A stretch of 61,121 nt of DNA, from positions 1-61,121 of the IMG/VR virus record IMGVR_UViG_3300013936_000003; one strand, 5' to 3'. Source of the stretch: a virus. The notes below the pieces were generated by a model. The model was not told the origin of the DNA, did not search any database, and worked only from the letters and a program-made list of their open reading frames with translations. Made by a program: the position numbers and the translations under genes. This document shows, piece after piece, positions 17,573 to 18,659 of this stretch (within the stretch, counting starts at the first letter, position 1; every line of letters begins with the position of its first letter).

Positions 17573-17668
17573 CCCTGCCGTGCCAGGGAGGCAGTCCAAG
17601 GCGATTAGTCGGCCGTCGGCAATCCGTGCAGCGGCACGGAGATTGGGGTTCGACTCCCCAACTGGGCA
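17573..17668 (+). ncRNA. tRNA-like element 4 (degenerate), abutting the int2 start codon
   Basis: Perfect T-arm tgggg-TTCGACT-cccca; 6-bp arm ccgtgc-agcg-gcacgg; imperfect acceptor; hairpin ccctg-ccgtgc-caggg at 17573..17588. Confidence 0.35.
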
Positions 17669-17669
17669 C

Positions 17670-18659
17670 ATGAATGAAAATTTATACACTGAGATAATTG
17701 GCAAGATAACCCCAATTCTAACAGGGTCACAATTGGGAGAGATTAGCGGCATCATCAAATCTGCGCTCTGCAAATACGATGTTATTTCCACCGCAGATGA
17801 GCGGGAAAATACGCAGCACAGCAACCGCCAATTGCTTGATACCTTCATTTCTGCAAAGCGTGTAGAAGGATGCTCCGACAAAACGCTTGAAGTATATAGA
17901 AATTATCTGTCATTTTGGATTAAGGACTTTGTGGGCAGCATATTAAATGCGACAACAAATGATATGCGCTTGTACCTCGCACATCTGCAGAGCGACAGGA
18001 AAAATACAAATGTGTCTGTTGATAACCACAGAAGAATTTTGTCAAGTTTTTTTCGCTGGCTGGAGGAGGAGGATTTTGTAAAAAAAAGCCCAATGAGGCG
18101 AATTCACAAAATCCGTCAAATGAAGGCTGTCAAAGAGCCGTTTTCAGAAGACGAACTCGAAATTCTGCGAAGCAATTGCGACAACTTGCGAGACTTGGCA
18201 ATAATAGAGTTTCTCGTTTCGACAGGGGTCCGGATCGGAGAGCTTGTTGGGCTCAACATAAAAGATATTGATTTCGAGAAAAGACAATGTGTTGTGCTTG
18301 GGAAGGGAAACAAACAGCGTATAGTATATTTTTCAACTCGTGCAAAAATTCGTTTGCTTGACTATCTGAAAGAGAGAAAAGATGATAGTGATGCATTGTT
18401 TGTCGCCTTAAATCCTCCGCATAACCGTCTGCTGATAAATGGGATTGAAAGCAGACTGAGGAATTTCGGCAACAAACTGGGCATCAGGGTTCACCCACAC
18501 AGGTTTCGCCGAACGCTGGCCACTCGAGCTCTCGATAGAGGCATGCCAATTGAGCAAGTTCAGCACATGCTGGGTCATAGTAAACTTGACACAACGCTTA
18601 TTTATGTGAAAGTTGAAGACAGCAATGTCGAGCATTCGCATCACAAATATATAGATTAA
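17670..18659 (+). CDS. XerC/XerD-like tyrosine recombinase (second integrase), low GC
   Basis: SAM-like N-terminus; GVRIGEL...HRFRRTLA...LGHSKLDTTLIYV; the N-terminal extension in track ORF 17553 is spurious because it covers tRNA-like element 4. Confidence 0.9.
   Translation: MNENLYTEIIGKITPILTGSQLGEISGIIKSALCKYDVISTADERENTQHSNRQLLDTFISAKRVEGCSDKTLEVYRNYLSFWIKDFVGSILNATTNDMRLYLAHLQSDRKNTNVSVDNHRRILSSFFRWLEEEDFVKKSPMRRIHKIRQMKAVKEPFSEDELEILRSNCDNLRDLAIIEFLVSTGVRIGELVGLNIKDIDFEKRQCVVLGKGNKQRIVYFSTRAKIRLLDYLKERKDDSDALFVALNPPHNRLLINGIESRLRNFGNKLGIRVHPHRFRRTLATRALDRGMPIEQVQHMLGHSKLDTTLIYVKVEDSNVEHSHHKYID

Follow-up and report, generated by a model that had tools for sequence, protein, structure and literature searches.

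An optional Xer-type tyrosine recombinase gene behind a tRNA-like RNA in a temperate Bacteroidales phage, related to the recombinases of hsdS loci

The window analysed here, a stretch of 61,121 nucleotides (IMG/VR record IMGVR_UViG_3300013936_000003, positions 1 to 61,121), is the complete 61-kb genome of a phage, assembled as a single contig with direct terminal repeats (bases 1-77 recur at 61045-61121). The phage is a temperate phage of gut Bacteroidales, with a host of the Muribaculaceae (Sodaliphilus) type. Between a tRNA-like element, E4, and the early recombination gene ERF it carries an accessory gene for a tyrosine recombinase. The locus consists of:

17580..17669, + strand: tRNA-like element 4 (E4), from ARAGORN, RNAalifold and pair counts on five sequences; its 3' end meets the recombinase ATG
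17670..18659, + strand: accessory Xer-type tyrosine recombinase gene encoding protein P0001 of 329 amino acids (aa), from Pfam, NCBIfam and alignment with XerA
18660..18742, + strand: downstream border, formed by a conserved intergenic cassette (GTTAAATAGAGTTAT...CTCGCTGAAAATAGCTAATTTAG) that probably serves ERF as promoter/operator, from its repeats and the junction sequences of the relatives L183, L191, L182 and L006

The open reading frame (ORF) at 17670..18659 is open and intact, and the first-pass annotation of this DNA, which had called it a second, Xer-like tyrosine recombinase, is borne out by Pfam, the XerA model and the catalytic motifs. P0001 matches Phage_integrase (E 4e-35), Phage_int_SAM_4 and SAM_1, with scores above the curated cut-offs (PF00589, 121 bits, cut-off 27.1; PF13495, 49 bits, cut-off 27). 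It exceeds the cut-off of the NCBIfam XerA-type model (235 bits, cut-off 220) and falls far under those of the XerC and XerD models (166 of 335 bits and 145 of 330 bits, respectively). Its PHROGs label is 'integrase', and Pfam found no arm-binding domain in it. The best match among solved structures is P. abyssi XerA (4A8E, E 1e-30), in an alignment that spans VRIGE (Arg), GKGNKQR (Lys), HPHRFRR (His/Arg), LGHS (His) and LIYV (Tyr). The predicted catalytic residues are R188, K215, H277, R280, H303 and Y312, and all six motifs are likewise found in the allele of the related phage L006. P0001 is a simple tyrosine recombinase of Xer/Cre-like architecture, intact and selectively maintained.

ATG 17670 is taken as the start codon because thousands of homologues align from residue 1. 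TTG 17553 was rejected, as starting there would mean translating through E4. The last base of E4 immediately precedes ATG 17670 (the sequence ahead of it is ...ccccaactgggcac), which upholds the close abutment described earlier. Antisense to the gene, within its final codons, lies a perfect minus-strand Bacteroidota -7 box (TATATTTG, 18644-18651), which is not kept in L006.

The best relatives of P0001 are thousands of recombinases of about 330 aa, matching it over the full length at 50-54% identity, from Bacillota, Bacteroidota, Mycoplasmatota, Fibrobacterota, Actinomycetota and one archaeon. The sampled cellular homologues all lie between hsdS genes of type I restriction-modification (R-M) loci (L001, L087/88, L090 and L092-94), and L092-L094 display differing shuffled hsdS states. 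In L099, the pneumococcal member sampled, the genes run hsdM-hsdS-rec-hsdS'-hsdS''-hsdR. Of 51 loci with flanks of 3 kb or more on either side, 49 had hsdS or hsdM nearby, hsdS usually within 100 nt. Recombinases of such loci act on hsdS segments by inversion, for which repeats of only 15 bp (IR1) can suffice, or by excision and reinsertion, and in vitro they do so without accessory factors (PMC7096588, PMC6265443, PMC7672463).

The pair of phage proteins, from the window and L006, forms a lineage sister to these recombinases of phase-variable type I R-M (hsdS) loci. Of 126 columns that are ≥ 95% conserved in the hsdS-linked clade, the window protein keeps 107 and the L006 protein 104. The complete phage genome gave no match to Methylase_S (hsdS) at E ≤ 1, and the neighbours of the gene are an array of RNA elements and ERF. 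The lineage of hsdS-shuffling recombinases has, in other words, an orphan, selectively maintained branch in phages. It is moderately surprising to meet such a branch flush behind a tRNA-like RNA.

Between E4 and the promoter cassette of ERF, the recombinase gene forms an optional cassette whose limits are its own start and stop codons. The site is occupied by the same protein on further contigs of this phage (L004 and L005) and, 0-1 nt after E4, by the L006 allele. In L183 it is empty and E4 runs straight into the ERF promoter cassette (...GGGCAC-AGA-GTTAAATAGAG...); the integrated prophage L191 and also L192 read ...GGGCAC-AAG-GTTAAATAGAG..., so that the empty-site junctions overall are GGGCAC-AGA/AAG-GTTAAATAG. 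By blastn, the piece missing from L191 at this site is exactly 17671..18659, and L183 lacks the identical segment. L182 carries a scar in which 34 nt from the start of an L006-type gene meet ~25 nt from its end at a GCA microhomology, and this loss is a plain microhomology deletion rather than a site-specific excision. The more distant L193-L197, with the same synteny, lack the gene at that place. Comparison with phages that lack the gene had been proposed as a way to define the borders of an insertion; the borders are indeed precise, to the ORF, but the RNA elements stay behind and there is no island. The cassette at 18660..18742, which recurs at 30229..30272 (86%) and 55057..55100, is present also where the recombinase is absent.

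A separate history and dispensability of the gene, as had been supposed, are supported by its absence or scarring in relatives, its lower G+C content and its divergence. Between the window and L006 the recombinase is 67% identical in aa sequence, whereas the flanking genes reach 89-94% (ERF 94%, exonuclease 92%, SSB 89%, SNF2 94%). Its G+C content is 42.2% (third codon positions, GC3, 44.5%), that of ERF 55.1% (GC3 73%) and that of the genome 53.6%. The contrast with ERF pointed out in the first-pass annotation is real, although ERF lies at 55% and not at about 60%. Recent acquisition, which had been read from this contrast, does not hold, as both alleles are low in G+C (window 0.42, L006 0.45) and their synonymous sites are saturated (proportion of synonymous differences, pS, 0.75; nonsynonymous divergence, dN, 0.24). 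For the neighbours ERF and exonuclease, synonymous divergence (dS) is ~0.8-0.9 and dN 0.05. The cellular homologues are A+T-rich as well (median G+C 0.39) and in high-GC hosts lie up to 0.15 below their surroundings. Because the alleles are saturated, dN is low, G+C is low in both and sites stand empty or scarred, the gene must have been acquired long ago; where present it is kept by selection, and it has been lost repeatedly.

Two neighbouring regions differ between relatives. In L005 (2799-4828) the RNA elements and recombinase are identical to those of the window and other genes follow ERF (a 314-aa protein and a GNAT acetyltransferase), which points to recent mosaic exchange immediately to the right of ERF. 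In L191 (12971-15766) and L192 (3226-6021) the SNF2 helicase gene has an extra segment of ~1 kb with a LAGLIDADG_3 match (931 aa, against 591 aa in the window), probably an intein or homing-endonuclease insertion.

E4 is the last of four tRNA-like elements, the others being:

16722..16782, + strand: E1, preceded by a hairpin at 16696..16717, from the T-arm repeat and fold
16805..17050, + strand: DUF3276/PUR-like gene within the array, from Pfam DUF3276
17127..17189, + strand: E2, preceded by a hairpin at 17093..17120, from the T-arm repeat and fold
17324..17412, + strand: E3, ending in ACCA, preceded by a hairpin at 17297..17318, from the T-arm repeat and fold

ARAGORN reported 17577..17669 as 'tRNA-???' with a four-base anticodon, and in 14000..19500 there was no match to Rfam tRNA, tRNA-Sec, tmRNA or any other family at E ≤ 1. 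When five variants of E4 (window, L183, L006, L182 and L191) were aligned, the consensus fold combined an acceptor-like helix of 8 bp, a 9-nt loop on an anticodon-like arm, an extra arm of 7 bp and a T-arm; a D-arm was not found. In this alignment 95.7% of cells are paired, three pairs, in the T-arm, are altered on both sides (doubly compensated), and the G-U wobbles fit the + strand only. E4 is a real, conserved, tRNA-shaped RNA, but not a tRNA.

A GGTTCGAnnCC T-arm is common to all four elements, each of which is closed by a 7-8-bp helix, and in L006 the acceptor stems are fully compensated. The same four-element array is found in all close relatives, including those without the recombinase, and the more distant L193 and L194 carry another set of four elements. 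An integron-like reading of the array was rejected since it is stable without the recombinase. The idea of an RNA-guided recombinase was likewise dropped, as E4 persists where the gene is absent and the cellular homologues have no such RNA. E1-E4 form a stable RNA array independent of the recombinase, and this sharpens the separate question of what these RNAs do.

Four tRNA-like RNAs with a DUF3276/PUR-like gene precede ERF in several lineages (window 16696-17669, L193 6565-7660, L194 3700-4760). E3 is ~97% identical between phage lineages that are ~82% identical overall. The element at 7597-7660 of L193 is a mini-tRNA without an anticodon arm, with G3-U70 and ACCA, and matches the Rfam tmRNA model at both of its ends (33 bits, E 6.5e-10). 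Exact-pattern scans for the cores of E2, E3 and E4 found nothing in IMG/VR, and a scan of Joint Genome Institute (JGI) metagenomes for array sequences gave five chance matches only.

The recombinase is probably read from an early rightward transcript starting near 15527, at an early promoter box, because no + strand -7 box (TAnnTTTG) occurs between 16566 and 18802. The AUG lies flush against a G+C-rich helix of E4, and translation would therefore be weak unless E4 is removed by processing: it may be throttled, or may require E4 to be cut at its 3' end in the manner of a tRNA, with a near-leaderless mRNA as the result. An upstream RNA hairpin holds down expression of pneumococcal tvrR (PMC6265443).

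By analogy with its relatives, the enzyme would invert, or excise and reinsert, DNA between short repeats without accessory proteins, at sites that would lie away from its own flanks. Several candidate sites were discarded. The palindrome GACAATA-N8-TATTGTC (17537..17561) and an inverted repeat within the gene (17711..17737) are not kept in L006. A possible invertible segment at 30229..31165 has repeats that are only 72% complementary, one arm being a promoter-type cassette ahead of a gene and the other following small ORFs. The window also encodes two adjacent small serine recombinases (34282-35779; PHROG 125 'DNA invertase', E 4e-39 and 2e-43), to which, rather than to the tyrosine enzyme, any invertible segment of the structural region would more readily be ascribed.

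A second accessory gene may be connected with the recombinase:

27735..28505, + strand: ORF of 256 aa, N-terminal half of an HsdM-type N6 methylase, from PF02384 (58 bits, profile positions 4-118 of 311)

This half-HsdM protein has motifs X to III and lacks the NPPF motif. Its gene is the other ORF-sized piece missing from the prophage L191, together with the recombinase. Distant homologues of ~205 aa were found directly beside a tyrosine recombinase in 26 of 26 IMG/VR loci, which represent three independent arrangements (the L010 type, the L030 type and L199); one of the adjoining recombinases is 40% identical to P0001. A C-terminal LF is conserved in this family (window 27735-28505, L010 10318-11969, L030 2250-3806, L199 3881-5364). 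A missing C-terminal half that recombination could join to this ORF was considered and rejected, there being no second N6_Mtase match in the genome. As the two genes lie 9 kb apart in the window, their link is a lead only.

Integration of the phage is explained by a different gene and site:

13066..14274, - strand: lysogeny integrase of 402 aa with an arm-binding domain, from Pfam (Arm-DNA-bind_5 and SAM-like) and a six-frame match to PF00589; it adjoins the prophage junction
14370..14400, no strand: approximate attP crossover region, from blastn of L191 against the window and the junction sequence

That the phage has an integrase of its own, separate from P0001, had been recognized in the first-pass annotation. 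Homology of the integrated prophage L191 to the phage begins at 14395, between this integrase and the next gene. The host flank, from a metagenome-assembled genome, carries an RsiV-family (DUF3298) gene annotated Sodaliphilus sp. (L191 6630-6760), and the insertion adjoins this gene and is not within a tRNA gene. With the junction beside it, the integrase at 13066..14274 therefore explains integration, with attP near 14.38-14.40 kb; the recombinase is not the enzyme of lysogenic integration, nor does it belong to an island targeted to a tRNA.

The arrangement at 17670 had nevertheless been interpreted as an island at a tRNA 3' end, that is, a hitch-hiking mini-island or alternative integration system whose attachment (att) site is E4 or a host tRNA or tmRNA gene resembling it. 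The gene does start flush with the 3' end of a tRNA-shaped element and is low in G+C, and T-arms are symmetric sites favoured by many integrases. Relatives of the TvrR type are also able to excise and reintegrate circles (PMC6265443). However, E4 and the whole array exist unchanged in phages without the recombinase. No repeat flanks the gene (longest shared word 8 nt, against a shuffle mean of 7.7), the cassette contains no cargo besides the ORF, and the arm-binding domain is lacking. The expected att match in host genomes did not materialize: the DNA of the E-cluster had no match (E ≤ 1e-3 to 1e-5) in ~1,200 Bacteroidota genomes (401 for the phylum, 401 for the order and 401 labelled Muribaculaceae for the family), among which the true host is possibly not included. 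A search of 185,579 species representative genomes for the recombinase yielded no prophage copy, the best matches being at most 56% identical and all of the hsdS-linked type. In the sole integrated relative the junction lies at ~14395, beside the 402-aa integrase, and one loss of the gene is the plain microhomology deletion of L182. Largely refuted on these grounds, an island or att site is now very improbable. A false 'island at a tRNA' signal is thereby removed from the annotation of the phage, and integration is assigned to the correct enzyme and site.

Most likely, P0001 works as a simple-site invertase or excisionase on sites other than its own flanks; an inversion or resolution enzyme, already among the alternatives of the first-pass annotation, fits the family and is retained. 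Taken jointly, its identity, its status as an optional cassette and its action as a simple-site recombinase outside integration can be held with moderate confidence. It is improbable that the gene is a functionless passenger, captured from an R-M locus and drifting towards loss. Loss by deletion at least once and absence from most relatives would suit a passenger, but the alleles, though synonymously saturated, have retained the full-length frame, every catalytic motif and 85% of the clade-invariant columns. Moreover, dN is far below dS, and the phage proteins form their own lineage and are not nested in the host clade. A housekeeping role of the Cre/Xer type, with the enzyme circularising the terminally redundant DNA, or resolving multimers, through one site on the phage genome, has perhaps one chance in a few. 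It is in keeping with the Xer-type fold and the match to the XerA model, a location in the early operon beside the recombination module, the terminally redundant or circular genome and the Xer-like recombinases that other ERF phages also have in their early operons. With the neighbouring ERF/exonuclease/SSB module such an enzyme would be redundant, and the dispensability of the gene would thus be accounted for. On the other hand, no conserved lox- or dif-like inverted-repeat site was found near the gene or common to both alleles, evolution five times faster than that of the neighbours is unusual for a housekeeping enzyme-site pair, and the nearest relatives are not resolvases.

The reading tentatively preferred is that the recombinase acts in trans on short repeats of hsdS shufflons of the host or of a co-resident type I R-M system, altering restriction and methylation specificity during infection or induction, possibly with the half-HsdM-like protein. 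It is ranked slightly above a Cre-like role because the family is almost exclusively associated with hsdS and the gene evolves fast and in a patchy manner, and is itself doubtful enough to leave a large share of the probability to some other target. In its favour, the nearest relatives are almost exclusively recombinases of hsdS loci, and the gene shows the rapid evolution and patchy occurrence of an accessory gene. HvsR, cited in PMC7672463, is a precedent for an invertase that acts in trans. In addition, the truncated HsdM-type protein is absent from L191 along with the recombinase, and its homologues in other phages always adjoin a tyrosine recombinase, although in this phage the half-methylase gene is 9 kb distant.

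Several observations weigh against a host hsdS target. In a maximum-likelihood tree the window and L006 proteins fall outside a 100/100 clade (stem length 1.37) that holds all 84 hsdS-linked proteins, and the pair shares replacements at ~12 columns near-invariant in that clade, so site preference may differ. The phage has no sequence in common with the sampled hsdS loci, as matches to 424 kb of hsdS-locus flanks were not above chance. No candidate recombination site emerged, nor was an inverted-repeat core conserved in both alleles found near the gene. An HsdS protein already present would still restrict incoming DNA. Expression of the recombinase and processing of E4 are predicted from sequence alone, and the pattern of presence and absence is defined by five lineages only.

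An extension of the host hsdS reading, at present a long shot, is a two-part counter-measure against phase-variable type I restriction. The orphan recombinase would rearrange host specificity genes in trans beside a truncated HsdM-like, S-adenosylmethionine-binding protein, with the tRNA-like RNA gating recombinase expression; progeny DNA would, for example, be methylated for several phases of the host population. If the branch acts on host R-M loci, it would represent a new kind of phage counter-defence.

Among known systems, XerA, XerC and XerD (PDB 4A8E, 5HXY, 1A0P) are the nearest solved structures (E 1e-30 to 1e-21) and share the simple core-site fold, whereas P0001 is phage-borne and dispensable, has an additional N-terminal extension of ~50 aa and comes with no dif-like site that could be found. 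Like Cre/loxP of phage P1, it is a simple tyrosine recombinase that a temperate phage carries as a second, non-integrative enzyme, early and dispensable given homologous recombination; unlike Cre/loxP, it has no lox-like site that could be found adjoining the gene, and the sequence relationship is at the superfamily level only. The extra 'integrases' of Clostridium phage phiCp-D (L184 2977-3954) and Terrisporobacter phage TPELB_ph1 (L186 2989-3984) are similar in length (~325-331 aa, 34-36% identity) and are also extra recombinases, in isolated phages. However, they sit on a very long tree branch and between tail and lysis/holin genes, not behind an RNA array. TPELB_ph1 has a separate integrase besides its Xer-like one.

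The closest comparison is with the recombinases of hsdS invertons and shufflons (pneumococcal PsrA/CreX/IvrR and TvrR; PMC7096588, PMC6265443, PMC7672463). P0001 differs from these in belonging to a phage without an hsdS, hsdM, hsdR locus, in branching outside their clade and in the replacement of ~12 invariant residues. PsrA is reported at 31.2 kDa against ~38 kDa here, and sequence does not decide between a match to the PsrA-type and to the TvrR-type clade (PMC7672463). The likeness to the hsdS recombinases lies in 50-54% identity that includes the N-terminal extension, a two-domain architecture without an arm-binding domain, the same catalytic motifs and 85% of the clade-invariant positions. 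With tvrR, P0001 also shares a structured RNA ahead of the gene, which in tvrR limits its expression (PMC6265443).

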